Origin: Patescibacteria group bacterium
GTDB taxonomy: Bacteria; Patescibacteriota; Patescibacteriia; Patescibacteriales; XYC2-FULL-47-12
Assembly: GCA_041652935.1 (NCBI GenBank)
Contig: JBAZGH010000001.1
Span: 7,393-71,392 of the forward strand
Length of the DNA: 64,000 nt
Direction of reading: 5' to 3'
Shown: piece after piece, positions 16,226-34,544 of the stretch
How the letters are laid out: every line of letters begins with the position of its first letter
Position numbering within the stretch: the first letter of the stretch is position 1
Translations under genes and position numbers: made by a program
Notes under the pieces: model-generated
Told to the model about the DNA's origin: nothing
Databases searched by the model: none
The model's input: the letters and a program-made list of their open reading frames with translations, nothing else

Positions 16226-16226
16226 T

Positions 16227-16838: not shown

Positions 16839-16840
16839 TT

Positions 16841-17905: not shown

Positions 17906-17911
17906 AATTAA

Positions 17912-18700: not shown

Positions 18701-18703
18701 TAC

Positions 18704-19375
18704 ATGAATTATGTTATTGCCAGTATAAAATCATGGAATGAAGATAATTATAAAATTTTTTTTGATAAGAGTAAAAATTTTTATTTGATAACTAATAAAA
18801 AAGATTTAACATTTGCTAAATTAAAAAAAATAAATCCTAAATATATTTTTATTCCACATTGGTCTTGGATAATACCGGAAAGTATCTGGAGTAATTTTAA
18901 TTGCGTAGTTTTTCATATGACTGATTTGCCATATGGGCGCGGTGGCACTCCCTTGCAAAATTTAATTTTGCGTGGTCATAAAACCACAAAAATATCAGCT
19001 ATTAAAGTTAACAGAGGGATTGACACGGGAAATATTTATTTGAAAGAAAGTTTAAGCTTAAATGGAAGCGCTGAAGAGATTTATCAACGTGCATCAAAGA
19101 TTATTTTTAATAAAATGATTCCTAAAATTATAAAAAATAATCCAATTCCAAAGAAACAATGCGGAAAAATTGTAAAATTTAATCGCAGAAAACCAGGACA
19201 AAGCGAGATTTCCTCAGGCATGAATTTAAAAAAAGTTTATGATCAAATTAGGATGTTGGATGCGGAAGATTACCCCAGAGCATATTTAAAGACTAAAAAA
19301 TTGAAATTTAATTTTTCTAAAGCTCAATTAAAAAATAAAAAATTAATTGCTAATGTTGAAATATATGAAGAATAA
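18704..19375 (+). CDS. Formyltransferase-family protein (sugar N-formyltransferase-like, Fmt N-domain)
   Basis: 223 aa. FHMTDLPYGRGGTPLQNLIL resembles the H-x-S-L-L-P-x-x-R-G catalytic motif of formyl transferases. Confidence 0.6.
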   Translation: MNYVIASIKSWNEDNYKIFFDKSKNFYLITNKKDLTFAKLKKINPKYIFIPHWSWIIPESIWSNFNCVVFHMTDLPYGRGGTPLQNLILRGHKTTKISAIKVNRGIDTGNIYLKESLSLNGSAEEIYQRASKIIFNKMIPKIIKNNPIPKKQCGKIVKFNRRKPGQSEISSGMNLKKVYDQIRMLDAEDYPRAYLKTKKLKFNFSKAQLKNKKLIANVEIYEE

Positions 19376-20042
19376 TATTTTAGTAATAGCTGCCCATCCT
19401 GATGACGAAATATTAGGCATAGGCGGTACAATTTTAAAGCATATTAAAAACGGTGATCAAGTTAGCATCTTAATCCTAGGGGATGGTGAAAGTTCAAGAA
19501 TGAGTGCGACTGCGGTTGATATTGCAAAAAGAAAAGAACAAGTTAAAGAAGTAGCTAAAAAATTAAAAATTAAAAATATTTTTATTGATGAATTACCTGA
19601 TAATAAATTTGATTCAGTAAGTTTGCTAGAAATAATTAAAAAAATAGAAACTATAATAAATAAGATAAAACCAAATATTATTTATACACATCATGCGCAT
19701 GATTTAAACATTGATCATTGTTTGACTTTTCAAGCAGTGTTAACTGTTTGTCGACCTCAGCCAGATTTTTTTGTGAAAAAAATATTAACCTTTGAAACTT
19801 TATCTTCAACCGAATGGCAAATTAAAAATGGACAAAATAATTTTTGTCCAAACGAATATGTTAATATTGAAAAATTTATTAATAAAAAAATTGAAATTTT
19901 AGAGATATACAAAGATGAATTGAGAGATTGCCCTCATCCTCGTTCGATTGAAGGTGTAAAAGTTTTAGCCAAATATAGAGGAATGGAAGTCGGTTATAAA
20001 TACGCTGAAGCTTTTCAAGTAATTAGAAACTTAAATGATTAA
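19347..20042 (+). CDS. PIG-L/LmbE-family N-acetylglucosaminyl deacetylase
   Basis: 231 aa. AAHPDDEILGIGGT is the LmbE zinc-site motif. Confidence 0.75.
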   Translation: MLMLKYMKNNILVIAAHPDDEILGIGGTILKHIKNGDQVSILILGDGESSRMSATAVDIAKRKEQVKEVAKKLKIKNIFIDELPDNKFDSVSLLEIIKKIETIINKIKPNIIYTHHAHDLNIDHCLTFQAVLTVCRPQPDFFVKKILTFETLSSTEWQIKNGQNNFCPNEYVNIEKFINKKIEILEIYKDELRDCPHPRSIEGVKVLAKYRGMEVGYKYAEAFQVIRNLND

Positions 20043-20050
20043 ACAATAAA

Positions 20051-21433
20051 TTACCCCCCGCTCGCATCCCGCCCCAACAACACAGTCCGAATAGTTTTGA
20101 GCATAATAACCAGGTCTAAAAATAAGGACCTGTTTTTTATATAGTATAAATCGTACTGCAGTTTTTTTACCGTGTCCTCTACCGTCGGAGAGTGGTATTC
20201 GCCGCAGACCTGGTCCCAACCGGAAATTCCCGGCTTAACCAGGGTGCGCTCGTTGTAAAAAGGAATTTGTTCTTGCAGTTGGCTTGCCAGATTAGGCCGC
20301 TCCGGACGGGGCCCGATTAAACTCATTTCACCTTTTAAAATATTTATCACTTGCGGTATTTCATCAATTCTAGTATTGCGTAAGAAGTAACCAAACTTAG
20401 TAATGCGGGCATCGTTAGGAACGGTTGGCCGCCCAGTATTTCCCTCCTCGCGCATTGTCCGGAATTTTATTAAGTTAATCGGCCTATTATTTTTTCCGGC
20501 CCGTTCTTGCCTATAAAATATTGTACCGCGGCTTTCTATTTTTATAATGGCTGCGATAATTGGCCAAAACGGCAGGGTGATTAGAAAAATAAAAAGGGCG
20601 ATAATTATATCATAGACCCTTTTTATTTTATCAAACCATGATTTTCCGCCCTCCTGCAGATTTTCTAAAAACCACATTTGGTTAATTGATTCTACTGGAA
20701 TTTTGCCGGTTATTTTTTCATAGAAGTTCGGCAGGCTGGAAAAATTTATTCCCAAGTGCAGGCAGTCAAATAAATTTGATCGGATTTCATTTGAGGTTTG
20801 GGCATCATCAGTCAAAATGACCGAGGAAATTTTATGTTCCAGCAGGTATTTTTTAATATTGGCAATGTCTTTATAATGTTTTACTTCATATAATCCCCGC
20901 TCATAGATATCGCCCTTATATAATACGAAAGATATCCTTAGCCCTAAATGCGGATTATCATTAAAATATTTTATCAATTCTTTTGTTTTTTCGTTATATC
21001 CGATAATCGCTATTTTATTTTTCGGCAAATAAGACTTCAGCGTTTTATTATAAATCTGCCGCCAGATTAAAAATAAAGCCGCGGTAATGACAATATCAAT
21101 CAAAAGATTCCTTTTCGGCGCGATGTTTAAATTAGGCATTAAATAGAAGAAAGCGGAGCCGAGCAGGAAGGAAAAAAACAAAGCCAGCGCGGTATGGGTA
21201 TAAAATTTAGCGTTATTAATCGCGATGGTAAGGTCGTATAAATTGCTGATATAAAAAATCAGCAGCCATAAAATAAAAACGGCTGTAAACGGGCCGATAT
21301 GGTCGGGCCATTGGCGCGGCATGGTTTCGTTCCCATATCTAACCAGCAGAGTTAAATACAATGAAACATATAGTATGCCGATATCGCCCAGCAGAAGAAG
21401 GTATTTTTTAAATTGGAGTGAGTAGTACTTCAT
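20051..21433 (-). CDS. Undecaprenyl-phosphate sugar phosphotransferase (WbaP/PglC-type initiating 'bacterial sugar transferase')
   Basis: 460 aa. The N-terminal half has multiple transmembrane segments. The C-terminal catalytic domain carries the hallmark SLIGPRPERP. GC looks higher than its neighbours. Confidence 0.8.
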   Translation of the reverse strand: MKYYSLQFKKYLLLLGDIGILYVSLYLTLLVRYGNETMPRQWPDHIGPFTAVFILWLLIFYISNLYDLTIAINNAKFYTHTALALFFSFLLGSAFFYLMPNLNIAPKRNLLIDIVITAALFLIWRQIYNKTLKSYLPKNKIAIIGYNEKTKELIKYFNDNPHLGLRISFVLYKGDIYERGLYEVKHYKDIANIKKYLLEHKISSVILTDDAQTSNEIRSNLFDCLHLGINFSSLPNFYEKITGKIPVESINQMWFLENLQEGGKSWFDKIKRVYDIIIALFIFLITLPFWPIIAAIIKIESRGTIFYRQERAGKNNRPINLIKFRTMREEGNTGRPTVPNDARITKFGYFLRNTRIDEIPQVINILKGEMSLIGPRPERPNLASQLQEQIPFYNERTLVKPGISGWDQVCGEYHSPTVEDTVKKLQYDLYYIKNRSLFLDLVIMLKTIRTVLLGRDASGG

Positions 21434-21626
21434 GGGTAGGATTATAGTATATTTTTAAGATAAAAGCAAGTTTAGTTTATCTGAGCGCCAAGAGTTTTTG
21501 GCGCTGGATTTATTTACATTTTTTATTTTTTATGTTATCATATTCGGAACGCTGCTTTAGTTTTAAAAAGCAGTTTTTAGATAGGTCTTTGTAAAAAAAC
21601 GAAAAAAACGAATAGGAGACGGTGCT

Positions 21627-23297
21627 ATGACAAAAAAAATGTTAGCAGAGCTGTTTGTCAGAGCTATCGACCCACAATTTGGAGAAGACAACATCTATCG
21701 GAATCCAGCCCAAATAACCATTTCCTTGGGACCGGTAATGATCGCGACTGTTGTCCAGGAGCGCGTAGCAGGTGTAGAAGCTGAAGTTGTGTCGGAAAAC
21801 AATTTCCGGCCATTTCTAAGAAAAGCTCCCTTGGACGGGAGGGGAATGCCCGACCATCTGGCTTTGCAAAAAGAGCGACCGGCAGAATTCATTTTTATCT
21901 CGGCGAGCATCAGCAACGCGGTCCCACGGGCGCTGGAACTCATCGGCATTTACCGCAACATGCCCGAGGAGCTAAGACCGAAATGGATTGTGGTCGGCGG
22001 CTGGCATGCCGGAGACAGCCCCAAGGAATTTCTGCTTGCCGGGGCCGATATCGTCGTCCATGGCGAAGGCGAGCCCGTCGTTAAGTCAATTATTGACGCG
22101 CTAAAAGGCGATTTGCCGCTGGAAAAAGTGCCTGGGATTTCCTATTGGTCGGCGGACGGGCAGATAAAAAGGAATCCGGTTTTTGACAAGCGCTATGAAG
22201 GGGAAGAGGGGTTTATTATCGTTCCGCCCGAAGAGATGGACCTTTTGCCTTACCCGAATTTCGGACTGGTGCGCTGGGCAAAAATAGAGATAATACCCAT
22301 AAGCAGAACAAGGGGTTGCGGCGGGAAGTGCCGTTTCTGCCGAGTTAAGGGAGAAGCGAGAGTTATTTCCCCAAAACGCCTTGCGGAACAGATAGAATCT
22401 CTGTGCAGCCAGGGGTATAGGCGATTTTTCCTAGTCGACGATCGCTCGGAAGAGGATATGGAAGGATTCATCGCTTGGTTGCAAGAAATAGTGAAATTGC
22501 GAAGGGAGAGGAAAATCCGGTGGATCTACATTACGGTCCAAAGCCGGTTATCCGCCGCCAATGACGAAGAACTGCTGCGGCTGATGCACGAGGCGGGAAT
22601 ACAGACAGTGGCAATCGGGGTTGAATCGGTTATTCCTGAAGAGTTGAGGGCCATGAAGAAGCCTATGAGCCAAGACCTTAATGAAATCGTCAGATTGATC
22701 AAGGTTTGGAAAAAACATGGCTTTTTCACGCATGCGATGCTCATCTTCGGCTATCCAATGCCATCCAAATCCAATCCGTTCCGCATGGATATTAAAGAGC
22801 GCGTCGCCAGATTCTGGTATTTTATCAAGGAGGCAAATCCGGACACGTTGCAGGTTTTAGCCTTAACGCCGATTCTGGGTACAGAGGACTGGCGAGATCT
22901 TGAAAGTCAAAACAGGATCTTCAGGGACTTGGGATGGCAGAATTGGGACGGCCTGCATGTGGTTTTCAGGCCGGATGAGCCCTTAACCGCCCCGCAGGTG
23001 CAGAGGGCTATTATTTATCTGCAGGACAGGTTTTATTCTTTTCTGTGGCTTAACATTCACGGAATTGCTTCTGTGGCGTTGAGAGCTTGCTATATCGGAT
23101 TGCTTGCGTTGGCTATGCCCTTTGTCTGGGCGCTTCTAATGCCTTTTAAGGGATTGGTTCCTAAATTAGCTTTTCGGCCCTGGCACAGGGTATGGCGCAA
23201 CACTATTCGCCGTCTTGGAGCCCAACTGATAGTTTTACGGGTTAAGGAAAAGCTTATTCCCTTCCTGCAAAAACTTGAAGAGCGTGAAGAACGTTAA
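21627..23297 (+). CDS. B12-binding-domain radical SAM protein with a C-terminal hydrophobic membrane anchor
   Basis: 556 aa. There is an N-terminal Rossmann-like B12-binding region. CGGKCRFC is a CX3CX2C motif. The C-terminal about 60 aa are hydrophobic. The gene is markedly GC-rich. Confidence 0.65.
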   Translation: MTKKMLAELFVRAIDPQFGEDNIYRNPAQITISLGPVMIATVVQERVAGVEAEVVSENNFRPFLRKAPLDGRGMPDHLALQKERPAEFIFISASISNAVPRALELIGIYRNMPEELRPKWIVVGGWHAGDSPKEFLLAGADIVVHGEGEPVVKSIIDALKGDLPLEKVPGISYWSADGQIKRNPVFDKRYEGEEGFIIVPPEEMDLLPYPNFGLVRWAKIEIIPISRTRGCGGKCRFCRVKGEARVISPKRLAEQIESLCSQGYRRFFLVDDRSEEDMEGFIAWLQEIVKLRRERKIRWIYITVQSRLSAANDEELLRLMHEAGIQTVAIGVESVIPEELRAMKKPMSQDLNEIVRLIKVWKKHGFFTHAMLIFGYPMPSKSNPFRMDIKERVARFWYFIKEANPDTLQVLALTPILGTEDWRDLESQNRIFRDLGWQNWDGLHVVFRPDEPLTAPQVQRAIIYLQDRFYSFLWLNIHGIASVALRACYIGLLALAMPFVWALLMPFKGLVPKLAFRPWHRVWRNTIRRLGAQLIVLRVKEKLIPFLQKLEEREER

Positions 23298-23308
23298 ATT
23301 TCTAATAA

Positions 23309-23345
23309 CCCCGTTTGAGTTAACACCTCAGCGGGTTTTTATTTT
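23309..23345 (+). terminator. Rho-independent terminator after the radical SAM gene
   Basis: An interrupted GC stem CCCG..TGAG / CTCA.CGGG is followed by TTTTTATTTT. Confidence 0.5.
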
Positions 23346-23383
23346 AAGTTGAATAACTATAAATAATCTGCTATATTAAATAC

Positions 23384-24403
23384 ATGAATAACGACAAAAA
23401 ATATGAATTTAACTGGCCGTTTTTCGGCAACCAGCACATCATCGATTTTTTACAGACCGGGATAAGCAATAACAGCCTGTCGCACTTTTATATTTTTTCC
23501 GGACCGCGGGATTTGGGGAAGTCAACGCTGGCTAATTTTTTTTCCCGTTCAATTTTGTGCGAAAATTTTAATGCCAAAAGAGGAAAACTGCCCTGTGGCG
23601 AATGCGTAAATTGCCGGCAGAAAAAGCACAGCGATATTACTGTGGTTGAAAAAGAAGCGGATAAAAAAAATATATCAATCGAGCAAATCAGGGAATTCAT
23701 AAAAATGATGAATATGGGTTCGTTTGGCAATTCCTATAAAATAGGAATTATCAGGGAAGCTGAAAATTTAAGCATTGAAGCGGCCAACGCGCTTTTAAAA
23801 ACACTGGAAGAACCAAAAAATAAAGTTTTAATAATAGCCCTTACTTCTTGGCTGGATAAATTGCCGCTGACGGTTAAATCCCGCGGCCAGACGCTTCTTT
23901 TTAAGCCCACAAGCCATGCCGGCATTTATGATTATTTAATAAAAGAGCATAAAGCGTCGCGCGACTTTGCCCTGAAACTTTCAAAAATATCAGTCGGCCG
24001 GCCGGCTTTGGCTGCCAAGTTGTTTCAGGAGGAAGAATTATTTAAACAGAGAAAACAAACCGCTGAATCGCTGATTAATGTTATAAGGGGGGATTTAAAT
24101 TTAAAATTTAAAGAAATAGATAGTTTATTGGGCGCGGGAAAAAATACTCAAGAGCAGAGGGAAAACGCCTTATTTATCTTAGAAATTTGGCAGACTATCG
24201 CCAGGGATCTTTTAATGATTCAGTCCGGATTGAGCGAATTTTCTATAAATGGATTTTCCTCTTCAGAATTAAATAGATTAAATTTAAACAGCCATGGTCT
24301 GATAATGCTGAATGACAATATTAAAAAAGGAAGGGGATATTTAGCCGCTAATGTTAATCCTAAATTAGTTTTGGAAAATATCTGCCTACAAATTACGAAT
24401 TAG
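23384..24403 (+). CDS. holB: DNA polymerase III delta' subunit
   Basis: 339 aa. FSGPRDLGKSTLANFF is an AAA+ Walker A-like motif. A C-x-x-C zinc module and a T.SW motif are present. Confidence 0.7.
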   Translation: MNNDKKYEFNWPFFGNQHIIDFLQTGISNNSLSHFYIFSGPRDLGKSTLANFFSRSILCENFNAKRGKLPCGECVNCRQKKHSDITVVEKEADKKNISIEQIREFIKMMNMGSFGNSYKIGIIREAENLSIEAANALLKTLEEPKNKVLIIALTSWLDKLPLTVKSRGQTLLFKPTSHAGIYDYLIKEHKASRDFALKLSKISVGRPALAAKLFQEEELFKQRKQTAESLINVIRGDLNLKFKEIDSLLGAGKNTQEQRENALFILEIWQTIARDLLMIQSGLSEFSINGFSSSELNRLNLNSHGLIMLNDNIKKGRGYLAANVNPKLVLENICLQITN

Positions 24404-24406
24404 TTT

Positions 24407-24483
24407 ATAAAGTTTAAAAGTTGAAAGTTAAAAAGTTCTTGTAAATAAAATACTTTTTAACTTTTAACTTTCTAACTTTTAAT
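24407..24483. repeat. Imperfect palindrome built from AAAGTTN and AACTTTN heptamers around a conserved loop TGTAAATAAAATACTTT (copy A of a family)
   Basis: Read directly. The left arm is aaagtttaaaagttgaaagttaaaaagt and the right arm is actttttaacttttaactttctaacttt. Confidence 0.7.
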
Positions 24484-24496
24484 TAATAATTATTAT

Positions 24497-25612
24497 ATGT
24501 TTAAACAACACAAAAAAGTTATATCACTTATTTTATTATTATTTGTCGCTTTGGGTTTGAGCGGCTGCAGCATTACCTTCGGGACTTCAAGCAATTCTTC
24601 AATGATTGACGGAGGGGTTTATAAGAGTTTTAACCGGGGTGTTGTTTGGAAGCAAAATTCCCTGGTCGCCTCAACCGGCAGCAAGGCAGTAAGTTTTAAT
24701 TCCGCCAACGTGGTCGCGTTAGCGATTGATCCGCAGGATGAGAACGCGATTTACGCCGGCACAGACAACGGTGGAATGCTTTATTCATACGACGGCGGAG
24801 CCAGCTGGAGCGTTGCCCGCGACTTAGGAAAAAGGTATGTGAAAGACATAAAAATAAGCCCGGTTGATAAATGCACAATTTATATTGCTTCCGAGAATAA
24901 AGTATTTAAGTCCGACGACTGCAGCCGGACATGGGATGATGTGTATTATGATAATAATACCGGCGTAATGATAAGAAGTTTAGCAATAGACCCCAGAAAT
25001 GAAAATATAATTTATGCCGGAACTTCGCGGGGAGATGTCATCACATCCTCAGATGCCGGAAAATCATGGAGCGCGCTGAAAAGATTCAGCGAAGATAAAT
25101 TATTCCGCGGCAAGAGCGAGATGAATATTATAAAAATTATTGTCAACCCAAAAAACAGTAATAATTTATGGATAGCCACCGAAGCCAACGGAGTCTTTAA
25201 AAGTATGGATAGGGGGGCGACTTGGCAGAGTTTTGAAGAAGAGTTTAAAGAAATTAACACTTCTAATTCAATATTAGTCAGTGATTTTGATCTTTTTGCC
25301 GGAGACGGGAAAACTATTATAGTTGCTACTAAAGCTGGATTATTAAGAAGTTTTGACGCCGGCGCGCATTGGCAGGTAGTTGATTTAGTCCCTCCATCAG
25401 ACAGCACCGCCATTAACGCGGTTAGGATGCATCCAACCGACGCCAGCATTATCTATTACGCTACAAACACCTCGTTTGGCAGCACAGACGACGGCGGGCA
25501 GGAATGGACCTCAAAGAAACTGCCAAGCACCCGGGCTGGCGCAGTTTTAATATCTGATCCAAGTGATTCTGACGTAGTTTATTTAGGAGTCAAATCAATA
25601 GTTCAGAAATAA
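24497..25612 (+). CDS. Lipoprotein with five BNR/Asp-box repeats (beta-propeller)
   Basis: 371 aa. The lipobox is LSGCS. Five S-x-D-x-G-x-x-W boxes are present: SYDGGASW, SSDAGKSW, SMDRGATW, SFDAGAHW, STDDGGQEW. Confidence 0.65.
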   Translation: MFKQHKKVISLILLLFVALGLSGCSITFGTSSNSSMIDGGVYKSFNRGVVWKQNSLVASTGSKAVSFNSANVVALAIDPQDENAIYAGTDNGGMLYSYDGGASWSVARDLGKRYVKDIKISPVDKCTIYIASENKVFKSDDCSRTWDDVYYDNNTGVMIRSLAIDPRNENIIYAGTSRGDVITSSDAGKSWSALKRFSEDKLFRGKSEMNIIKIIVNPKNSNNLWIATEANGVFKSMDRGATWQSFEEEFKEINTSNSILVSDFDLFAGDGKTIIVATKAGLLRSFDAGAHWQVVDLVPPSDSTAINAVRMHPTDASIIYYATNTSFGSTDDGGQEWTSKKLPSTRAGAVLISDPSDSDVVYLGVKSIVQK

Positions 25613-25630
25613 TTAAATAAATTTATAAAT

Positions 25631-26185
25631 ATGAACCAATACATTCAACAATATCAAGGAGAATTAACGCAGGCGATTGAGCATTTTAAAAAAGAAATTG
25701 CCAGCATCCGCACCGGGCGGGCAAACCCGGCCATATTGGACGCCGTACAAGTTGAATCTTACGGCGTTAAAGTCCCGTTACAGCAAGTGGGCAATATTTC
25801 AGTAGTTGACGCGCATTGCATGACCATAACTCCCTGGGATAAAAATATATTAAAAGAGGTTGAAAAAGGAATTGTAGAGGCAGACCTGGGAATTTCACCG
25901 GTTAACGAGGGTGATAAAATAAGAATTACTATTCCCCAGCCGACCGAAGAAGACCGCAAAAGCAGGGTAAAGAAACTAAATGAAAAATTGGAAGTTTCCC
26001 GCGTGCAAATAAGGCAAGCCAGAGATAAGATAAAAGACGCCATAGAAAAAGCGGAAGACGATAAAGATATTTCCGAGGATGATAAATTCAGGTTTTTGAA
26101 GGAAATGGAAGAAATAGTAAAGAACAACAATGATAAATTGCAAGAAATAAGAGACGGCAAGGAGAAGGAGATAATGACCATCTAA
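25631..26185 (+). CDS. frr: Ribosome recycling factor
   Basis: 184 aa. IASIRTGRANPAILD is the RRF signature. Confidence 0.85.
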   Translation: MNQYIQQYQGELTQAIEHFKKEIASIRTGRANPAILDAVQVESYGVKVPLQQVGNISVVDAHCMTITPWDKNILKEVEKGIVEADLGISPVNEGDKIRITIPQPTEEDRKSRVKKLNEKLEVSRVQIRQARDKIKDAIEKAEDDKDISEDDKFRFLKEMEEIVKNNNDKLQEIRDGKEKEIMTI

Positions 26186-26187
26186 GT

Positions 26188-26266
26188 TAGAAAGTTGAAA
26201 GTCAAAAGTTATAAAGTGCCTGTAAACAAAATACTTTCTAACTTTCAACTTTTAAACTTTTAACTT
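26188..26266. repeat. Copy B of the AAAGTT/AACTTT palindromic element, sharing the loop TGTAAACAAAATACTTT
   Basis: agaaagttgaaagtcaaaagtt ... actttctaactttcaacttttaaactttt. It is about 75% identical to copy A. Confidence 0.7.
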
Positions 26267-26271
26267 ACACT

Positions 26272-27420
26272 ATGTTCACAACAATTATTATATTTTTAGT
26301 TATTTTATCTATTCTAGTTTTTGCCCACGAACTGGGACATTTTTGGACTGCCAAGAAACTGGGCTTAACGCCCAAAGAGTTTGGCTTTGGTTTTCCTCCC
26401 AGAATTGGAGGGTTTTATAAAACTAAGCAAGGCAAATGGCGTTGGAAATGGGGGGGCGGTAAAATAGAAAATATAACGGGAACAATTTACTCAATAAATT
26501 ATCTGCCATTGGGAGGATTTGTTAATGTCGGCGAAGATGATGACATTGGAGGAGACGAAGAGTTAAAAAATGACCCAAAACATTTTAAAAACCAAAAGCC
26601 ATGGAAGCGAGGTGTGATTTTAACCGCCGGGGTGGTGATGAATTTAATACTGGCGGCCGTATTTTTTTCTATCGGCTATATGATTGGTTTGCCTAAAGTT
26701 GTGGATGAGGTTGGTCCGGGAGCGCGGTTTTCGGAAAAAAATATCCAAGTTGTCCAGATTCTTAGCAATACTCCGGCCGAGGAAGCGGGAGTTAAGGTGG
26801 GGGATATAATCATATCGATAAATGGGCAGGAATTTGCAAATTACAAAGATTTAAGCGATTTTGCCGCTTCTAAAAATAATGAACAGCTTGATTATAAAAT
26901 TAAGCGCGGCAAAGAAGAGCTGGATTTAATGATTGTTCCAGAGCCGATTTTTGAAAATGACAATATACCGGGAATTGGAATCGCGATTGCCGAAACCGGC
27001 TTAGTTAGTTATCCATGGTATCTGGCGATTTGGGAAGGTATAAAAACAACCATATTTTTAACCTGGTATATCATAGTTGCTTTTGCAGTTCTGATTAAAA
27101 GTTTAATAATGGGTCATGGAGCCGGGGTGGAAATAGCCGGACCGGTTGGAATCGCCAATATGACGGGGCAGATGGCGCAGCTGGGCTTTGTTTATATTCT
27201 GCAGTTTTCCGCTATTTTATCGATTAACCTGGCGATTATAAATTATTTGCCGTTTCCGGCGCTGGATGGCGGGCGGGTGTTATTTTTAATTATAGAAAAA
27301 TTCCGCGGCAAGCCGGTTTCGGAAAAAGTAGAAGCCTTTATGCATAATTTGGGCTTTATATTATTAATGCTCGCGGTTGCGGTTGTAACTCTTAGGGATG
27401 TGTTAAAATTGTTTAATTAA
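26272..27420 (+). CDS. rseP: RIP zinc metalloprotease (site-2 protease, RseP-like) with a PDZ domain
   Basis: 382 aa. It has HELGHF (HExxH), a PDZ domain in the middle and the C-terminal LDGG motif. Confidence 0.8.
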   Translation: MFTTIIIFLVILSILVFAHELGHFWTAKKLGLTPKEFGFGFPPRIGGFYKTKQGKWRWKWGGGKIENITGTIYSINYLPLGGFVNVGEDDDIGGDEELKNDPKHFKNQKPWKRGVILTAGVVMNLILAAVFFSIGYMIGLPKVVDEVGPGARFSEKNIQVVQILSNTPAEEAGVKVGDIIISINGQEFANYKDLSDFAASKNNEQLDYKIKRGKEELDLMIVPEPIFENDNIPGIGIAIAETGLVSYPWYLAIWEGIKTTIFLTWYIIVAFAVLIKSLIMGHGAGVEIAGPVGIANMTGQMAQLGFVYILQFSAILSINLAIINYLPFPALDGGRVLFLIIEKFRGKPVSEKVEAFMHNLGFILLMLAVAVVTLRDVLKLFN

Positions 27421-27424
27421 ATAA

Positions 27425-29077
27425 ATGATTAAAAAATTATTCACCTCTAAAATAAATTCAATTACTTCAGCAGCAATAATTGTCGCGGCGGCGTCGGTAG
27501 CCAGCCGCTTTTTAGGTATTTTCCGCGATAGGATTTTAGCCGGTGAATTCGGCGCCGGCGATACGCTTGATATCTATTATGCCGCTTTTCGCGTTCCTGA
27601 TTTAGTTTTTAATTTGCTTGTTTTAGGCGCGCTGTCAGCCGGTTTTATCCCGGTATTTGCCGGCTTATGCGAGAAAAAATCCGTTTTTAAATTTTTATGC
27701 CGCGGTAAAGAGAAGTGCGGCCAAGAGGCCTGGTATGTCGCCAACGCGGTAGTGAACTTAATCGGCATTTCTTTGATTATTATTTCAGCAATTTTAGTTA
27801 TTTTTACTCCCCAACTAATGCGTTTAATTACTCCAGGATTTGACGGGGAAAAGTTAAGCATGACAATAGCAATGACCCGCATTATGTTTTTATCTCCATT
27901 CTTTTTGGGTTTAAGTTCGGTTATGGGCGGAATTTTACAGTCATTTAAAAGATTTTTTGTCTATTCAGTCGCGCCGATAATGTATAATATCGGGATTATA
28001 ATCGGCGCTTTGTATTTTGTTCCGATTTGGGGAATTTACGGCTTGGCCTATGGAGTCGTTTTCGGCGCCCTGCTGCATTTTTTAATTCAGGTTCCGACTG
28101 CTTTCCATCTTGGCTACCGTTGGCAGCCGGTGCTTAATTTAAAAAATAAAAATGTCAGGGAAATAATAAAGATGATGGTTCCCCGGACAATGAGTTTGGC
28201 GATTTCCCAGATAAATTTAGTTGTAATTACTATTATCGCCTCTACTCTAGCGGCCGGCAGTTTGGCGATTTTTAATTTTGCCAATAATTTACAGTCATTT
28301 CCCATAGGCATATTCGGCATTTCTTTCGCGATAGCGGCTTTTCCAACCCTATCGTCTTTAGCGGATAGAAAGGAAGAACTAATCCGCAATTTTTCCAAAG
28401 TATTGCGCCAAATTATTTTTTTCATTCTGCCGGCAACAGTTTTCATACTGACTTTGCGCGTGCAAATTATCCGCGTTGTTCTCGGAAGCGGCCAGTTTGA
28501 CTGGGAAGACACTATTTTAACCATGGATACTTTGACTTTTTTTAGTTTAAGTTTATTCGCGCAAGCAACCATCCCGCTTTTAATCCGCATGTTTTACGCC
28601 CAGAAAGACAGCAAGACTCCATTCATTGTCGGCTTAATTTCAGCCATAGCTAATATATTTTTAAGTTTGTGGCTTGCCTCCCGCATGGGCATAGCCGGTT
28701 TGGCGCTGGCTTTTTCCATCGCCATGATAATAAATTTTGCCCTGCTTTGGCTTTTATTAAAAGCAAGGTTGGGCGAATTGGATGAAGTAAATATACTCTA
28801 CTCAACTTTAAAAATTTCTTTAGCCAGTATTTGCGCAGGTCTGGGCGTACAGGCCATGAAATTAATCGTCGGCTCTTCTGCGGTTATTGACATGACCCGT
28901 TTTTGGGGTATATTTACCCAAAGTGCTGTTGCTGGAATTTTCGGCTTGTTTATTTTTATTCTGCTTTGCTGGATGCTGCATGTGGAAGAGCTTTATAATT
29001 TTGTCCGCAGCATCCGCGCCAGAGCCAAGCGGGAAAAAGTTGAAACCGAGGGGCATGGCGAAGCGCGAGGCATTTAA
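27425..29077 (+). CDS. murJ: Lipid II flippase MurJ (MviN family)
   Basis: 550 aa with about 14 transmembrane helices. The N-terminal SRFLGIFRDRILAGEFGAG is typical of MurJ. Confidence 0.8.
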   Translation: MIKKLFTSKINSITSAAIIVAAASVASRFLGIFRDRILAGEFGAGDTLDIYYAAFRVPDLVFNLLVLGALSAGFIPVFAGLCEKKSVFKFLCRGKEKCGQEAWYVANAVVNLIGISLIIISAILVIFTPQLMRLITPGFDGEKLSMTIAMTRIMFLSPFFLGLSSVMGGILQSFKRFFVYSVAPIMYNIGIIIGALYFVPIWGIYGLAYGVVFGALLHFLIQVPTAFHLGYRWQPVLNLKNKNVREIIKMMVPRTMSLAISQINLVVITIIASTLAAGSLAIFNFANNLQSFPIGIFGISFAIAAFPTLSSLADRKEELIRNFSKVLRQIIFFILPATVFILTLRVQIIRVVLGSGQFDWEDTILTMDTLTFFSLSLFAQATIPLLIRMFYAQKDSKTPFIVGLISAIANIFLSLWLASRMGIAGLALAFSIAMIINFALLWLLLKARLGELDEVNILYSTLKISLASICAGLGVQAMKLIVGSSAVIDMTRFWGIFTQSAVAGIFGLFIFILLCWMLHVEELYNFVRSIRARAKREKVETEGHGEARGI

Positions 29078-29107
29078 CACTTAATAAATAACAATTAATA
29101 TTTAATT

Positions 29108-29416
29108 ATGAACAAAATTAATAATTTCCACAAAACAACCATCTTTACTTTTACGCTCGCTTTATTATTTATTTTTTCCGCTATTTTAGTGCAGATAAAA
29201 GGGCAAAGCGAGTTGAGTATGAATTGCAGTTATCTTGACCCCATCACCATAGATATTTTTGCTTTTATATTCGCCCTATTTTTAGTTATTGAAGGAATGT
29301 ATAAAATATATCAGGATAAAGATGCGGCATTGACGAAACAAATGACGAGGAGCATTAGAGTTTCCGTTGGCATGGCTATTTTAACTCTCCATATTCTGCA
29401 GTTTTTTTATAAGTAG
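29108..29416 (+). CDS. Small hypothetical membrane protein
   Basis: 102 aa with three predicted transmembrane segments. No recognisable family. Confidence 0.35.
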   Translation: MNKINNFHKTTIFTFTLALLFIFSAILVQIKGQSELSMNCSYLDPITIDIFAFIFALFLVIEGMYKIYQDKDAALTKQMTRSIRVSVGMAILTLHILQFFYK

Positions 29417-29467
29417 CAGCGGAATCTGTAAATAAAAAACGTAAATTATTAATATATAATTTATTTT

Positions 29468-31348
29468 ATGAATCACATACGTAACTTCTGTATAATCGCG
29501 CACATAGATCACGGCAAGTCCACATTGGCAGACAGGATGCTTGAAATAACGGGAACGGTGGAAAAAAGGAAAATGAAAGAGCAATTGCTGGACAGGATGG
29601 ACTTGGAAAGAGAGCGGGGGATAACCATTAAACTGCAGCCCGTTAATATGGAGTACGAAGGATACCATTTGAATTTAATCGATACTCCCGGGCACGTGGA
29701 TTTTTCCTATGAAGTTTCAAGAAGTTTAGCGGCTGTTGAGGGCGCTGTTTTGTTAGTGGACGCAACTCAAGGAATACAGGCGCAGACGCTGGCGAACCTT
29801 TATTTAGCGCTTGACCAAAATTTAGAGATAGTACCGGTTGTAAATAAAATTGATTTGCCCGCGGCGGATGTAAAAGGAACAAAAGAAAGCATTGTTAAAT
29901 TGCTTGGATGCAAACAAGAAGAAATTTTAGAGGCCAGCGGAAAGACCGGCGCAGGAGTGAAGGAAATTTTACAGGCAGTTATTGATTGTGTGCCGCCGCC
30001 CAAGACAACCGCGGAAAATAAATTGCGCGCTTTAATTTTTGACTCTGTTTACGACGAATATAAGGGCGTAGTCGCCTATGTCCGGCTGGTTGACGGAGAA
30101 GTTAAGAAAGGGGATGAGATAAAAATGGTTACGACTAAATATGAAAGCGACGCCCTTGATGTCGGCGTCTTCAAGCCGGATTATAAATCGACCGGAGAGC
30201 TGAGAACAGGAGAAATCGGCTATATTGTGACTGGCCTTAAATCAGTTGAAGAGTGCAAAGTCGGAGATACCATAACATTATCGAACGCTTTAATAGCGTC
30301 CCCCTCCTTAAGCGAGGGGACAGGGGTGGTGATGAAAAATAAAAATCACACCCCCCCAACCCCCCCCTCGTCCAAGGGGGGGCGCGTTCGCGCAATGGTT
30401 GTCGCACTTCCCGGCTATAAAGAAGTAAAGCCGATGGTTTTTGCGGGGATATTCTGCAAAGAGGGAAATGAGTATGAAGAGCTGCGCGAGGGCATTGGAA
30501 AATTAAAATTAACTGATTCAGCCCTGGTTTATGAACCGGAGCATTCACAGGCGCTGGGCTTCGGGTTCCGATGCGGATTTTTAGGCCTGCTTCACCTGGA
30601 AATATTCCAAGAGCGCTTGCGCCGGGAGTATGGCTTGGGGCTGGTAGTTACAACGCCTTCAGTTGCTTATCAGCTTAAAAAAACCGGCGGGGAAGAGATG
30701 ATAGTGCGCTCGGCCCTGGATATGCCTGACCCCGCGCATATCGCTTCCATAAAAGAGCCGTGGGTAACCTTAGATGTAATTTCCCCCAAAGATTATATGG
30801 GAGGAATTATGTCTTTAGTGCAGGAAAAGCGGGGAACATATAAAAATACTGAGTACATTGACGATAACCGAGTAATTTTGCATTACGAAATGCCGATGTC
30901 GACTATCCTAACTGATTTTTATGACAAAGTAAAAAGCGCAACATCTGGTTACGCTTCTATTAATTATGAATTTTTAGATTACCGGAATTGCGAGGTGCAG
31001 CGATTGGACATTTTAGTCGCAGAAGAGCAGGTTGAATCTTTGGCAACTATTGTTTATAAGGACGAGGCGTTTAAGCGCGGCAAAGAAATTGTGAACTCGC
31101 TGAAAAATACATTGCCGCGCCAGCAGTTTGTTTTAAAAATACAGGCAGCTATTGGCGGTAAAGTAATCGCGGCTGAAAGAGTGTCCGCCTTGCGGAAAGA
31201 TGTAACTGCTAAATTATACGGCGGCGATGTTTCCCGCAAGCGCAAACTTTTAGAAAAGCAGAAAAAAGGGAAGAAGAAAATGATGTCTATGGGCAAGGGC
31301 AAGGTTGATATTCCGCCGGAGGCGTTCCTTGCGGTGTTAAAGAAATAA
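29468..31348 (+). CDS. lepA: Elongation factor 4 (LepA), carrying a roughly 34-aa in-frame insertion
   Basis: 626 aa. The G-domain motif NFCIIAHIDHGKSTLADR and the LepA C-terminal domain are present. The insertion lies between TITLSNA and ALPGYKEVKP. Confidence 0.85.
   Translation: MNHIRNFCIIAHIDHGKSTLADRMLEITGTVEKRKMKEQLLDRMDLERERGITIKLQPVNMEYEGYHLNLIDTPGHVDFSYEVSRSLAAVEGAVLLVDATQGIQAQTLANLYLALDQNLEIVPVVNKIDLPAADVKGTKESIVKLLGCKQEEILEASGKTGAGVKEILQAVIDCVPPPKTTAENKLRALIFDSVYDEYKGVVAYVRLVDGEVKKGDEIKMVTTKYESDALDVGVFKPDYKSTGELRTGEIGYIVTGLKSVEECKVGDTITLSNALIASPSLSEGTGVVMKNKNHTPPTPPSSKGGRVRAMVVALPGYKEVKPMVFAGIFCKEGNEYEELREGIGKLKLTDSALVYEPEHSQALGFGFRCGFLGLLHLEIFQERLRREYGLGLVVTTPSVAYQLKKTGGEEMIVRSALDMPDPAHIASIKEPWVTLDVISPKDYMGGIMSLVQEKRGTYKNTEYIDDNRVILHYEMPMSTILTDFYDKVKSATSGYASINYEFLDYRNCEVQRLDILVAEEQVESLATIVYKDEAFKRGKEIVNSLKNTLPRQQFVLKIQAAIGGKVIAAERVSALRKDVTAKLYGGDVSRKRKLLEKQKKGKKKMMSMGKGKVDIPPEAFLAVLKK
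30296..30398. mobile_element. GC-rich palindromic miniature element inserted in frame within lepA
   Basis: Hairpin 1 is GTCCCCCTC-CTTAAGC-GAGGGGAC. AGGGGTGGTG and CACACCCCCC are complementary. Hairpin 2 is CCCCCCC-TCGTCCAA-GGGGGGG. The element is about 60-70% GC in an AT-rich gene and resembles the element at 42711-42872. Confidence 0.55.
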
Positions 31349-31468
31349 CACAACACGTATTACATAACGCAAACATATGAAAAGAAAAACAATTAAAAAA
31401 GTTATCGGCACCAGCATAATAATCATAATGATTATCGCTATGCTGTTATTTACTTTAATGCCGTTGTT

Positions 31469-31509
31469 TTATTAAAAAATAAAAAGCCGTTTCCAATTCT
31501 GAAAACGGC
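31469..31509 (-). terminator. Rho-independent terminator for the minus-strand small gene
   Basis: On the minus strand the stem GCCGTTT / AAACGGC is followed by TTTTTATTTTTT. Confidence 0.6.
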
Positions 31510-31513
31510 AGTG

Positions 31514-31708
31514 TCATCTAGAACTCCAAAGATAATAGACCGTAATAAAACAGAGAGCGGCCAGGAACCATCTCACCACCTTATAGATTAGAAATCCGAC
31601 TGTATCCCGTATTTCTCGTCTATAAAAATAATCTTCGCCCGCTCCGATAACAATAAATCCAACGACGAATAAGATAAAGCCTAGTATAGTTTTCATTGCG
31701 GGGTCCAT
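31514..31708 (-). CDS. Small two-helix membrane protein
   Basis: 64 aa. A strong SD AGGAGG lies 8 nt upstream, and its own terminator follows. Confidence 0.5.
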   Translation of the reverse strand: MDPAMKTILGFILFVVGFIVIGAGEDYFYRREIRDTVGFLIYKVVRWFLAALCFITVYYLWSSR

Positions 31709-31761
31709 TTCCGCCTCCTTTTTTGAAATAGATGTAAAGATATTAGCATTATTTTAAAGTT

Positions 31762-33573
31762 TTGTCAATTTTTATGGATAAAAAGTGGATTATAAAGGAA
31801 AAACAGGAATACACTAAAAACAATCCGGGATTGCACCCGGTTATTTTTCGATTACTGGCAAATCGCGGTTTTAGCGTTGATGAAATAGAGAAATTTTTAA
31901 AGCTGGATTACAAGGAAAATTTACATGATCCATTCTTATTTAAAAATATGAAAGCAGCGGTAGAATTGATTTTTAAGCACATGAAGAATGGAAGCAGAAT
32001 TATAATATACGGAGATTATGACGCTGACGGTGTTACAGCCACGGCGGTTATGCAGAAGACATTGGAATTTTTAGGATGCAAGAATTTAGATATTTACATT
32101 CCCCACCGCGAAAGCGAGGGATACGGCATAAATAAAAGCGCGGTAGAGGAAATTGCCAAAAGCGGCGCTAGTTTAATTATCACAGTTGATACCGGCATTA
32201 GAAGCATCGGCGAGGTTGCGCTAGCTAAAGAAAAGGGAATGGACGTTGTTTTAACCGACCATCATGAATGCGGCGAACAGGTTCCCGATTGCTTGATTAT
32301 TAATCCAAAAGTTAACGGCGAAAAATATCCATTCAGGGATTTGGCCGGAGTTGGCGTGGCGTTTAAAGTGTCGCAGGCGTTGTTGTACGCACGCGAAAAC
32401 CATGCGCAACATAACGCAAAACAACGCGAAAAAGAGGGATTTGAAAAGTGGCTATTGGATTTAGTAGCCATAGGCACCATTGCTGATTTAATGCCATTAG
32501 TTAATGAGAATAGAGTTTTGGTGAATTATGGATTAGTCGTATTGAATAAGACGCAGAGAATCGGCATTAAAAAATTAATGGAAACCGCGCAAAGCGATAC
32601 TGATAAAAATGGAAATAAGCGGGAAGTTGACGCTTGGCAAATTGGTTATCAATTAGCCCCTCGCTTAAATGCGGCTGGTCGGCTTGGGCGCGCAAATACG
32701 GCCTACGAATTACTTATTACTGAAGATAAACAAGAAGCAACAGAAATAGCCCATAAATTAGACAATACGAATAAAGAACGCCAAAATATTACACAAGAAA
32801 TTTTTGAGCAGGCAGAGCAAGAGATTAATAAGAAAAACAAAATTTTATTTGCTGTTTATAATGGAGAGCAAAAGAACGCCTGGTCTTCAGGAGTGATGGG
32901 TTTGGTGGCTGGAAAATTAACAGAAAAATATTACCGGCCATCGTTGGCGATTACAAGCAAAATTGGCAATGATGGGTTGGAAATTGTCGGGAGCGCCAGA
33001 AGTATTGCTGAATTTAACATTACATCCATGCTGGAGGAATGCGGTGAATTATTATCGCATTACGGCGGGCACAAACAGGCGGCCGGATTCACCATAAAGC
33101 CGGGAAAATTAGATGAGTTTTTAGCCAAAGCAAAAAAAATTACTGAACATGAATTAAAAGATGTTGAATTAATCCCCGCCCTAGAAATTGATTTAGAGAT
33201 AAATTTTAATGACGTGTCTGAAGATTTATATGAAGCATTGCAAAAATTAAGGCCCTTCGGAGTTAAAAATGCCCAACCAAAATTTGTTAGCAAAAATTTA
33301 AAAGTGATAAATGCAGTTAAGATGGGGAATGAACAACAACATCTCAAGTTACAAGTTACAAGTTACAAGTCACAAAAATTAAGCGCAGTTGGTTTTAGCG
33401 TATTGGAAGAATGGAAAAAAATAAAAATTGGAGACGAAATTGATTTAGTGTATTATATAGATATGAACGAATGGAACGGGAGGAGGGAAGTTCAGTTGAA
33501 GATTATAGACCTAAAAAATAATTCAAATATTCAAATGAATTCAAATACCTCAAATACAAATAATTCGAATTAA
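31762..33573 (+). CDS. recJ: Single-stranded-DNA-specific exonuclease RecJ
   Basis: 603 aa. DHH motifs (IIIYGDYDADGVTA, DHH) and DHHA1 are present. The C-terminal tail is N/S-rich low-complexity sequence encoded by TTCAAAT repeats. Confidence 0.8.
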   Translation: MSIFMDKKWIIKEKQEYTKNNPGLHPVIFRLLANRGFSVDEIEKFLKLDYKENLHDPFLFKNMKAAVELIFKHMKNGSRIIIYGDYDADGVTATAVMQKTLEFLGCKNLDIYIPHRESEGYGINKSAVEEIAKSGASLIITVDTGIRSIGEVALAKEKGMDVVLTDHHECGEQVPDCLIINPKVNGEKYPFRDLAGVGVAFKVSQALLYARENHAQHNAKQREKEGFEKWLLDLVAIGTIADLMPLVNENRVLVNYGLVVLNKTQRIGIKKLMETAQSDTDKNGNKREVDAWQIGYQLAPRLNAAGRLGRANTAYELLITEDKQEATEIAHKLDNTNKERQNITQEIFEQAEQEINKKNKILFAVYNGEQKNAWSSGVMGLVAGKLTEKYYRPSLAITSKIGNDGLEIVGSARSIAEFNITSMLEECGELLSHYGGHKQAAGFTIKPGKLDEFLAKAKKITEHELKDVELIPALEIDLEINFNDVSEDLYEALQKLRPFGVKNAQPKFVSKNLKVINAVKMGNEQQHLKLQVTSYKSQKLSAVGFSVLEEWKKIKIGDEIDLVYYIDMNEWNGRREVQLKIIDLKNNSNIQMNSNTSNTNNSN

Positions 33574-33576
33574 TTT

Positions 33577-33975: not shown

Positions 33976-34037
33976 TTTAATTTTTTATTTGAATTATTTG
34001 ATTTGAATAATTTGAATTTAAGTTCGTAATTCGAATT

Positions 34038-34445: not shown

Positions 34446-34470
34446 CCATGAAAATAATTCAACCATTATT

Positions 34471-34527
34471 TAACGATAATTGTACAATAATTAATTATCG
34501 TTAAATTATTGTACAATTATCGTTAAA
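34471..34527. promoter_or_regulatory. Composite perfect palindrome TTAACGATAATTGTACAATAAT / ATTATTGTACAATTATCGTTAA, with an additional direct repeat AATTATCGTTAA
   Basis: Read directly. The arms are 22 bp and perfect, separated by 13 bp. The element lies between rnhA and the ftsB-like gene. Confidence 0.6.
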
Positions 34528-34544
34528 TATTTTATAATAAACCC

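Follow-up and report, generated by a model that had tools for sequence, protein, structure and literature searches.

Heptamer-Built Hairpins in the Intergenic Spacers of a Patescibacteria Genome: An Apparently Undescribed Class of Palindromes Recurring across Bacterial Phyla

Introduction

What long hairpins assembled from repeated heptamers do between the genes of a bacterium is the question raised by a 64,000-nt stretch of a Patescibacteria genome (hereafter the window; the genome data were limited to those 64 kb). Two of its spacers, those between holB and a BNR lipoprotein gene and between frr and rseP, are each filled by inverted arrays of AAAGTT- and AACTTT-type units (copies A and B), for which a sequence-only reading of the same DNA had proposed an action on the start codons that follow. 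The hairpins belong to a family of repeat-built palindromes with turnover at the DNA level, one polarity, a preference for stop codons, enrichment in convergent spacers and long persistence at some sites. The explanation preferred here, with a probability of roughly 0.4, is that of an extragenic palindrome resembling the repetitive extragenic palindromes (REPs), built by slippage and palindrome correction and serving as a leaky 3'-end or intercistronic hairpin of the mRNA, a mode of action that we infer. In protein comparison, the RseP of the window was 100% identical to a protein from a Patescibacteria metagenome-assembled genome, the next named relatives being Candidatus Falkowbacteria.

Hairpin Copies A and B

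Copy A extends over positions 24407–24483 and copy B over 26183–26267, both on the plus strand, which carries nearly every gene of the window; both were recovered by folding and by inverted-repeat and array finding. In copy A, four AAAGTT units (24409–24437) form the 5' arm and four AACTTT units (24451–24479) the 3' arm, with the loop CTTGTAAATAAAAT between the arrays and inverted arms of 28 nt (24409–24436 and 24452–24479) that are 89% complementary. Copy B consists of five AAAGTY units (26183–26218), the loop CCTGTAAACAAAAT and five AACTTT units (26232–26267), with inverted arms at 26184–26212 and 26231–26259. Units are spaced by 7–8 nt in both copies and the loop measures about 14 nt, the sequence TGTAAA(T/C)AAAATAC being common to the two, which are about 78% identical over the whole element (78–87%, depending on the span aligned). 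Besides these two full hairpins, the window holds about four further arrays. Arrays of at least four units were observed six times as against a mean of 0.01 (maximum 1) in 100 first-order Markov simulations of the window, and forward hairpins twice as against none; the heptamer arms and the conserved loop described in the sequence-only reading are thus real.

RNA folding was evaluated for each element and both strands as minimum free energy (MFE) with a z-score against 200 shuffles. Copy A (−27.1 kcal/mol, z = −6.3) and copy B (−24.1 kcal/mol, z = −4.8) were matched by none of the 200 shuffles (0/200 in each case), so that one refuting condition set in the sequence-only reading, energies no better than those of shuffled controls, did not hold, and the minus-strand folds were about as stable as the plus-strand ones. 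The predicted stems are 28–35 bp long, with about one G–C pair per 7 bp.

Each copy takes up its entire spacer. Copy A starts 5 nt past the stop codon of holB (DNA polymerase III delta'; 23384–24403, plus strand) and occupies the 93-nt spacer from that stop (24403) to the ATG (24497) of the BNR/Sortilin-type repeat lipoprotein gene (24497–25612, plus strand). Copy B overlaps the end of frr (ribosome recycling factor; 25631–26185, plus strand), the base of its stem including the frr stop TAA (26183–26185), and is followed by the ATG (26272) of rseP (M50 site-2 protease; 26272–27420, plus strand). The 3' ends of the two copies lie 4–17 nt before the next ATG, which is unpaired in the predicted folds. 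The observation of heptamer-built hairpins in the window is confirmed.

Occurrence and Gene Context of the Class

The class was sought in one genome per species (185,579 species) with a pattern of two AAAGTY, a gap of 8–38 nt and two RACTTT. At least 120 matches were obtained; the order of the scan being unknown, the figures describe how a sample is composed and do not amount to a census, and phyla were assigned by record title. Among the matches listed, about 51 came from Bacteroidota, 21 from Acidobacteriota, 18 from Patescibacteria, seven from Nitrospirota/Nitrospinota, five from Pseudomonadota, four from Cyanobacteria and three from Planctomycetota, with single cases from six further phyla and four unclassified; the AAAGTY core hexamer recurs in more than 10 phyla, and Firmicutes, Actinobacteria and Proteobacteria, which make up the majority of described species, are nearly absent. 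Loci of relatives and scan matches are labelled with L-numbers (L001, L004, L155 and so on). Nearly all matches exceed the pattern, with 3–14 units per arm (median 4) over 47–180 nt (median 74). Artefacts of assembly are excluded, for complete genomes of isolates and assemblies made independently both contain them. The class unit may be written as a core AAAGTY in the 5' arm and RACTTT in the 3' arm, with a unit spacer of 1–4 nt. Searches of Rfam and of the full-text literature (two-unit strings; heptamer, hairpin and intergenic as terms) returned no description, the string matches being unrelated and eukaryotic; the class appears to be both widespread and undescribed.

Class-level counts refer to 100 hairpins in 937 kb of loci, among the matches listed. 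All 100 run forward, as (AAAGTY)n–loop–(RACTTT)n, and none in reverse. With a gene counted when it lay within 60 nt of the element, 41 hairpins stood between a stop and a start, 19 between two stops (convergent) and only two between two starts (divergent), while 22 had a stop on one side only, eight a start on one side only and eight neither. Element faces abutted a stop codon 101 times (median distance 4 nt, often overlapping) and a start codon 53 times (median 12 nt), and for 41/100 hairpins the next ATG lay within about 47 nt. Of the adjacent gene pairs in these loci, which served as background, 72% are co-directional, 16% are convergent and 12% are divergent; relative to these shares, convergent sites are enriched (p = 0.005) and divergent ones depleted (p = 0.03; overall chi-square p = 0.002). 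One-armed arrays, some of which are halves of the index hairpins, follow the same order on the sense strand, AAAGTY after stop codons (21 vs 4) and RACTTT before start codons (18 vs 5).

The two arms complement each other almost perfectly, a variant unit in one having its mirror in the other (L020, L022, L065), as in AATGTCC/GGACATT of L020 and ACTGTCT/AGACAGT of L065. Loops are mostly unrelated between copies of one genome (e.g., L087/L030, L119), exceptions being the window and the Patescibacteria metagenome-assembled genome H43-bin053_1, where two copies on different contigs (L106/L116) share theirs. In sense orientation, the 3' arm tends to exceed the 5' arm in units (17 vs 7, p = 0.07).

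Viral contigs were scanned with the forward and reverse AAAGTY patterns and with the rearranged units AAGATY and AATGAY as controls. The forward pattern gave 15 stretches, about half of them multi-unit, and the reverse pattern eight, all bare two-unit palindromes. AAAGTN/NACTTT hairpins of very large size, each arm counting at least a dozen units, lie at about 785–980 of L130 and 3850–4030 of L131, both on one predicted phage contig (IMGVR_UViG_3300031812_000004); phage genomes therefore carry the class too. In six viral loci (L128, L129, L132, L138, L141 and L142) a conserved short palindrome, AAAGTCYAAAGTYAACTTT...AACTTT, was seen, in several phage contigs 17–37 nt upstream of a roughly 670-aa gene; having no multi-unit array, it looks like a separate conserved regulatory site.

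The control units also gave multi-unit hairpins: AAGATY in 12 stretches, AATGAY in 15 and, with reversed polarity, AATGAY in 23, multi-unit cases included. The AATGAY elements are of the form (AATGACC)n...(GGTCATT)n, and viral loci L171, L173–L176, L197, L198, L204 and L211 carry such hairpins in both polarities; repeated GGTCATT is what we take to be the cyanobacterial STRR2 heptamer. The idea of AAAGTY as the sole hairpin-building heptamer was dropped on this account, and a dedicated AAAGTY-binding factor was down-weighted. Heptamer-built hairpins are a general architecture; what sets the AAAGTY family apart is that it keeps strictly to one polarity, extends over many phyla and sits at gene ends.

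Relation to Start Codons

The hairpins had been read as often abutting start codons, with the complementary arm as a possible means of sequestration. An AACTTT arm does end near a start in the window, with the ATG 4–17 nt off, though this does not define the elements: the stop codon is closer and the whole spacer is filled, the ATG lying close to the 3' arm because the element occupies a spacer that otherwise measures only 5–20 nt. Proximity to starts failed as a defining feature of the class, in which 101 faces abut stops and 53 abut starts, and a general function at start codons is excluded because 19 hairpins are convergent and only two divergent. Sequestration found no support either, the ATG being unpaired in the predicted folds.

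Nor does the absence of a Shine–Dalgarno (SD) sequence single out the genes concerned. An SD-like 4-mer precedes only 7/54 genes of the window, and the hairpin-free relative L001 also lacks an SD at its BNR lipoprotein and rseP genes. At hairpin-adjacent starts, the 4-mer was found in 0/23 cases in Bacteroidota (background 21/256, 8%) and in 5/28 cases in other phyla (background 105/393). From its scarcity in the backgrounds it follows that the lack of SD belongs to these genomes and not to these genes.

A translational role, as once suggested, cannot be the general one of the class; gating or coupling is possible at stop–hairpin–start junctions. A ribosome covers about 12–15 nt on either side of the codon being decoded, and at such junctions a terminating ribosome could plausibly unwind the outer units, thereby exposing the stretch just 5' of the next ATG.

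Turnover among Relatives

The syntenic holB–BNR and frr–rseP region was retrieved from seven related lineages. The frr–rseP spacer holds a heptamer hairpin in five of seven lineages, down to an RseP identity of 64%: AAAGTT hairpins in the window, in L004/L005 (RseP 88%) and in L156 (64%), whose loop is still recognisably homologous, and AAAGTC hairpins in L154 (73%) and L006/L007 (68%). The same spacer contains an unrelated G+C-rich palindrome with a T-rich tail in L155 (67%) and is empty in one lineage (L001–L003, 82%), with a length of 16 nt (TTTTTAAACTTACGCT). At holB–BNR, the window and L004 have a filled spacer and L154 a partly filled one; the spacer of L001 measures 5 nt and that of L155 15 nt. 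The palindrome of L155 belongs to a distinct family (GTCATTCCCGC...GCGGGAATGAC) seen at 4380–4480 and 8546–8683 of that locus, one copy being that in the frr–rseP spacer.

Comparison of the filled window site with the empty L001 site at frr–rseP revealed no target-site duplication beyond the unit periodicity; the empty site already holds one AACTT unit beside the ATG, which suggests growth in place or precise deletion. The loop of copy A is identical to those of copy B and of the L004 counterpart of B at 12/16 positions and to that of its positional orthologue in L004 at 4/16; copy A carries a B-type loop, and sequence has therefore moved between two sites 1.8 kb apart. Such differences point to unit slippage, precise loss, and conversion or re-copying as the DNA events among these relatives. 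In Flavobacterium, orthologous elements persist across species and differ by whole units (e.g., L013 vs L019). The hairpin of L019, at 1971–2050 of that locus, belongs to F. anhuiense FLA4 (NZ_CP158861.1, about 777,971–778,050), and L010/L080 are loci of F. chungbukense/chilense.

Proposed Role and Alternative Explanations

The preferred reading, a REP-like palindrome at gene ends, has a part at the DNA level, which is largely shown, and a part at the RNA level. At the DNA level, arrays arise and change in size as units are gained or lost, complementarity between the arms is maintained and copies exchange sequence; replication slippage together with palindrome correction or gene conversion would be the underlying processes. 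Elements would survive only at harmless places, mainly directly past stop codons in spacers of 5–20 nt. At the RNA level, the element would be transcribed within the mRNA and form a long A–U-rich hairpin from the upstream stop to the next start, attenuating read-through in the manner of REPs or of a leaky bidirectional terminator, and it might block 3' exonucleases or offer a site to RNase III. The expression of unrelated neighbours (holB|BNR, frr|rseP) would thereby be uncoupled. At stop–hairpin–start junctions the base of the stem would lie within the ribosome footprint of both codons, and downstream initiation would need an opened stem, the opener being, for example, a ribosome terminating upstream.

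A bidirectional terminator would require just such a polarity, in which both strands have the A-run arm 5' and the U-run arm 3', and the AAAG...CTTT core can be viewed as an iterated junction of A-tract, stem base and T-tract. On the strength of this core and the strict polarity, the family is proposed to have grown out of bidirectional terminators; seeding at terminator junctions would explain both polarity and gene-end bias. Retention of a hairpin at the frr–rseP site, with an unrelated palindrome in its place in L155, is in favour of a role, and the window element at 62258–62324, about 10 kcal/mol more stable as sense RNA, provides a hint at the RNA level.

Several results weigh against a role in the transcript. 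Across 41 co-directional hairpins, sense and antisense MFEs were alike (−27.9 vs −27.3 kcal/mol, p = 0.46), as were G·U pairs across 41 oriented hairpins (77 vs 66, p = 0.34); copies A and B are symmetric between the strands, and 19 window spacers displayed no significant sense/antisense asymmetry in MFE or G·U pairs, with three hairpins (62258–62324, 45939–46040 and 33976–34037) being 9–10 kcal/mol better in sense orientation. With no strand asymmetry, the comparison therefore yields no positive evidence of selection on RNA. Alignment of five homologous copies showed an invariant core AAAGT/ACTTT, changes confined to spacer positions, many of them pair-breaking, and almost no covariation. Past the last unit there is no T-tract, the T fraction in 10 nt being 0.27–0.32 and TTTT occurring in 2–3% of class flanks. 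As stop–hairpin–start junctions leave no room for a downstream promoter, any termination there must be leaky. The L001 lineage manages without the elements, and since AATGAY, AAGATY and T[AG]C[AG]AAT units also build hairpins, the architecture alone implies no function.

The earlier statement that no T-tract follows the copies held in the window and in the class, as did its conclusion that they are not mere terminators. The window 3' flanks, TAATTAATAATT and ACTTACACTATG, are free of a T-tract, the sole U-runs being the UUU within units; the copies are not canonical intrinsic terminators, a candidate ruled out by these flanks together with the G+C-poor stems of 28–35 bp. A terminator scan of positions 20000–38000 lists neither copy A nor copy B. 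A separately folding core between the arrays was present in 7/100 class hairpins. Rfam matches above the gathering threshold were limited, in the window, to two tRNAs, and permissive scans (24300–26400; eight carrier loci) returned only sub-threshold plant microRNA-precursor and generic hairpin matches. A promoter embedded in the 3' arm was rejected, a sigma-70 scan and inspection having found none placed to include the ATG in the transcript. Resemblances to the T7 epsilon enhancer (TTAACTTTA), to −35 elements of extracytoplasmic function (ECF) sigma factors (GAACTT), to boxA (CUCUUUAAC), to primase GTY recognition sites and to the 16S rRNA 3' tail were set aside, only 5–7 nt being alike, and so was the notion of all-frame stop modules, many units having no stop triplet.

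That the hairpins are a functionless, self-propagating repeat, produced by heptamer slippage and quasi-palindrome correction and tolerated mainly past stops with no selected RNA role, is the chief alternative to the REP-like reading and only somewhat less probable. It would account for presence/absence and unit-number polymorphism between close relatives, for loops not conserved within a genome (L087/L030, L119), for the missing sense/antisense asymmetry in stability and G·U pairs, for the expansion of arrays within a coding loop of recJ, and for the sharing of the architecture by several heptamer families, AATGAY in both polarities; neutral or selfish repeats, too, are typically scarce in divergent (promoter) spacers. 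A polarity of 100:0 is not predicted by a strand-blind DNA process, however, and the recurrence of the same core hexamer in more than 10 phyla among the matches listed, the persistence at orthologous sites in Flavobacterium and in lineages of the candidate phyla radiation (CPR) down to 64% RseP identity, the different hairpin that occupies the site in L155 and the sense-strand rule obeyed by one-armed arrays are also at odds with it.

Two further ideas are unlikely. According to the first, the arrays would be a hitherto unrecognised gene-boundary signal common to many phyla, a ladder of nested A-run/G–C/U-run modules whose strength would be set by the number of units and tuned by 7-nt slippage. 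Either RNA polymerase would read it as an attenuator that works in both directions and has no tract, or the hairpin would be melted by a conserved protein that binds single strands, for instance a cold-shock protein (Csp) or S1; if true, Bacteroidota, Acidobacteriota and CPR would partition expression compactly between packed genes by this means.

The second, which we regard as no more probable, is a translational device along the lines of the earlier suggestion, in which the U-rich RACUUU array beside the start would be an SD-independent enhancer or landing site for a single-strand binder such as S1 or a cold-shock protein, masked by the AAAGUY arm, the downstream gene being translated only with the stem opened by a ribosome terminating upstream or by an RNA chaperone. 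A stop in or beside the stem base with the ATG 4–17 nt beyond, RACTTT arrays before starts on the sense strand (18 vs 5), the excess of units in the 3' arm (17 vs 7, p = 0.07) and the low SD content of carriers (7/54 genes of the window; 8% in Bacteroidota loci) would suit it, as would the precedent of TAACTGA heptamers with proposed S1/Csp binding (PMC4679880) and the heptamer GTCTTTG/T preferred by Bacillus subtilis CspB, one position from GACTTTG/T (PMC1904285). Against this device, 19/62 classified hairpins are convergent and start-less, in another 22 a stop flanks one end while the opposite end has no gene within 60 nt, only two occupy divergent spacers, where elements of 5' untranslated regions should be common, the start codon is unpaired, and other heptamers build the same hairpins.

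A mobile element of the MITE (miniature inverted-repeat transposable element) or REP type, moved in trans by a transposase (e.g., a REP-associated tyrosine transposase (RAYT) or an IS200-type Y1 enzyme), is very unlikely. The insertion-like presence/absence at two sites and the loop sharing within the window and within H43-bin053_1 (L106/L116) would be expected of it; the lack of a target-site duplication, the AACTT unit in the empty flank and the loops generally unrelated within a genome would not, and a single transposase would leave unexplained why more than 10 phyla share one core. The GTAG/CGTC tag was not found at the ends of copies A or B, and a metagenome scan for the shared window loop gave only two unrelated, A+T-rich chance matches. 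Least probable of all is a double-stranded DNA site, with arrays of an inverted 6-bp protein motif as operator, nucleoid-protein or cruciform site, which the invariant core with variable spacers and the arms equally good on both strands would allow, but which is contradicted by a spacing of 7–9 bp, with which neighbouring sites do not come to lie on one face of the helix, by the location at gene 3' ends and in convergent spacers rather than promoter regions, and by the universal factor that more than 10 phyla would need, no cognate factor being known.

If active on transcripts, as the REP-like reading has it, the hairpins would be a common, easily recognised gene-boundary signal in phyla (CPR/Patescibacteria, Bacteroidota, Acidobacteriota) whose terminators, operons and SD-independent translation are poorly understood, and the number of units would be a heritable, fast-evolving control of the relative expression of neighbours. 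If functionless, they would show slippage and palindrome correction making long perfect hairpins from a 7-nt seed, mark free places for DNA insertion in compact genomes and be a likely source of assembly breaks and mis-called start codons. The culturable carriers Flavobacterium, Niastella and Fibrella make function directly testable.

Relation to Known Repeat Systems

The REP superfamilies are defined by GTAG/CGTC tags (PMC3733652). Like the REPs and bacterial interspersed mosaic elements (BIMEs) of Enterobacteria and Pseudomonas, the present hairpins are extragenic imperfect palindromes at gene 3' ends, in co-directional and convergent spacers, rare in divergent ones and variable between strains; the extragenic location biased to gene 3' ends holds for the class as a whole. 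REPs are, however, 20–40 nt long, G+C-rich, GTAG/CGTC-tagged, RAYT-mobilised and of lineage-specific sequence, whereas the present elements measure 47–180 nt (70–85 nt in the window), are A+T-rich and tagless, have arms of tandem 7–9 nt units and share a core across phyla. Protection of mRNA 3' ends, attenuation and effects when near a stop codon are among the roles of REPs, and a role of this kind is proposed here. The marks of MITEs, terminal inverted repeats with a target-site duplication and near-identical dispersed copies, do not fit: no duplication was seen between the window and L001, and in most genomes the loops of the copies are unrelated.

Repeated heptamers with an AACT core are the subject of the closest description that the literature searches found. 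MacGregor (2015) reported TAACTGA direct repeats directly upstream of SD-less starts in Beggiatoaceae, Cyanobacteria and five Bacteroidetes, with a reverse set just past a stop codon. Strains differed by 7-nt indels, close relatives lacked the repeats, and S1, Csp or CsrA were proposed as binders; one 'indirect repeat' is mentioned among 170 sets (PMC4679880). The hairpins studied here likewise have a heptamer with an AACT core, lie in intergenic DNA before SD-less starts (RACTTT arrays 18 vs 5; SD-like 4-mers in 0/23 and 5/28 cases), change by 7-nt indels and can be missing from close relatives. Unlike TAACTGA, the unit is NAACTTT/AAAGTTN and the arrays are inverted, nearly all TAACTGA sets being direct repeats with no hairpin architecture or stop-codon association described. 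The heptanucleotide repeats of heterocystous cyanobacteria (STRR) were reportedly described by Mazel et al. in 1990, STRR2 being TTGGTCA, and are direct arrays; they too are tandem heptamers in non-coding DNA, but with a different unit, and the AATGAY hairpins occur in both polarities as against one only for AAAGTY.

With bidirectional intrinsic terminators the class shares the hairpin at gene 3' ends, the A-rich 5' and U-rich 3' sides on both strands, the convergent enrichment and an AAAG...CUUU core resembling the junction of A-tract, stem and U-tract. Intrinsic terminators have G+C-rich stems of 5–14 bp, whereas stems here are 28–40 bp long and G+C-poor, with no contiguous U-tract, and the next ATG is often within 4–20 nt. 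Terminators overlapping the promoter of the next tandem gene have been reported (bioRxiv 10.64898/2026.08.19.745784) and were kept as an analogy only. Long hairpins set exactly between a stop and the next start of a polycistronic transcript also recall the RNase III sites of phage T7, and the predicted stems of copies A and B (28–35 bp) would be long enough for RNase III, which needs a duplex of at least about 20 bp. In T7 early mRNA, the intercistronic RNase III hairpins leave a protective 3' stem on the upstream message. The T7 sites are, however, unique sequences with a characteristic internal loop, while the present hairpins are repeat-built.

Other Arrays and Observations in the Window

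The partial copies noted earlier near the SIMPL and manC genes proved to be genuine one-armed arrays, neither of which folds alone (z = −0.1 and −1.1, respectively). The first, an AAAGTT-type array at 52867–52894 (plus strand), begins 3 nt past the stop of the SIMPL gene (52863), has no RACTTT partner and is followed by a separate G+C-rich hairpin at about 52891–52914. The second, with four RACTTT units at 60095–60123 (plus strand), ends 11 nt before the manC ATG (60135); in the spacer of 627 nt that precedes manC, it is predicted to pair at long range with an AAGTY-type direct array at 59653–59680 (plus strand), the two forming a split hairpin whose loop spans about 415 nt. A further array, AAGTTAC repeated four times (33346–33372, plus strand), is part of the coding sequence of recJ, where it encodes ...LQVTSYKSQ... 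in a loop of the OB domain that is variable. At the same place in recJ, L006 has AAAGTC units (18040–18074), the flavour in each case being that of the intergenic hairpins of the host genome (AAGTT in the window, AAAGTC in L006).

Other repeat-built hairpins are found in the window. A related TAAGTC/GGCTTA hairpin (62258–62324, plus strand) in the spacer between mltG (yceG) and a UMP-kinase-like gene is more stable as plus-strand than as minus-strand RNA (−23.9 vs −13.5 kcal/mol) because of G·U pairs at the same position in each unit. A second family, with T[AG]C[AG]AAT in the 5' arm and ATT[CT]G[CT]A in the 3' arm, forms hairpins at 45939–46040, 49386–49610 (arms of 83 nt), 39329–39467 and 38492–38647 and a solo array at 42014–42038, and recurs in relatives (L155, 5615–5710; L006, 11162–11250; L154, 8901–9089), where, as in the window, its hairpins also occupy whole stop-to-start spacers of these CPR genomes. 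With several spacers so occupied, repeat-built hairpins are the usual filling of the longer spacers of this genome; they separate functionally unrelated genes and are absent from the first 20 kb, where genes are tightly packed.

That first part (1–20000) has a G+C content of 29–32%, compared with 34–43% in 20001–64000, and contains tightly packed genes of sugar/sialic-acid-type biosynthesis (NeuB and others); this block may be a glycan island gained by horizontal transfer. A perfect 26-nt inverted repeat, TATTTAACGATAATTGTACAATAATT/AATTATTGTACAATTATCGTTAAATA, at 34467–34529 between an RNase H-like gene and divIC is not heptamer-built (fold −29.7 kcal/mol) and could be an operator or other palindromic element. 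The enolase gene (52953–54223) is split into overlapping open reading frames in different frames, one for the N-terminal domain (52953–53678) and one for the C-terminal TIM barrel (53474–54223), by a frameshift that is due either to a real pseudogene or recoding event or to an assembly error. The 413-nt gap between lepA and recJ (31349–31761) contains a canonical minus-strand terminator (31486–31509) with a T-run and may hold a small minus-strand gene.

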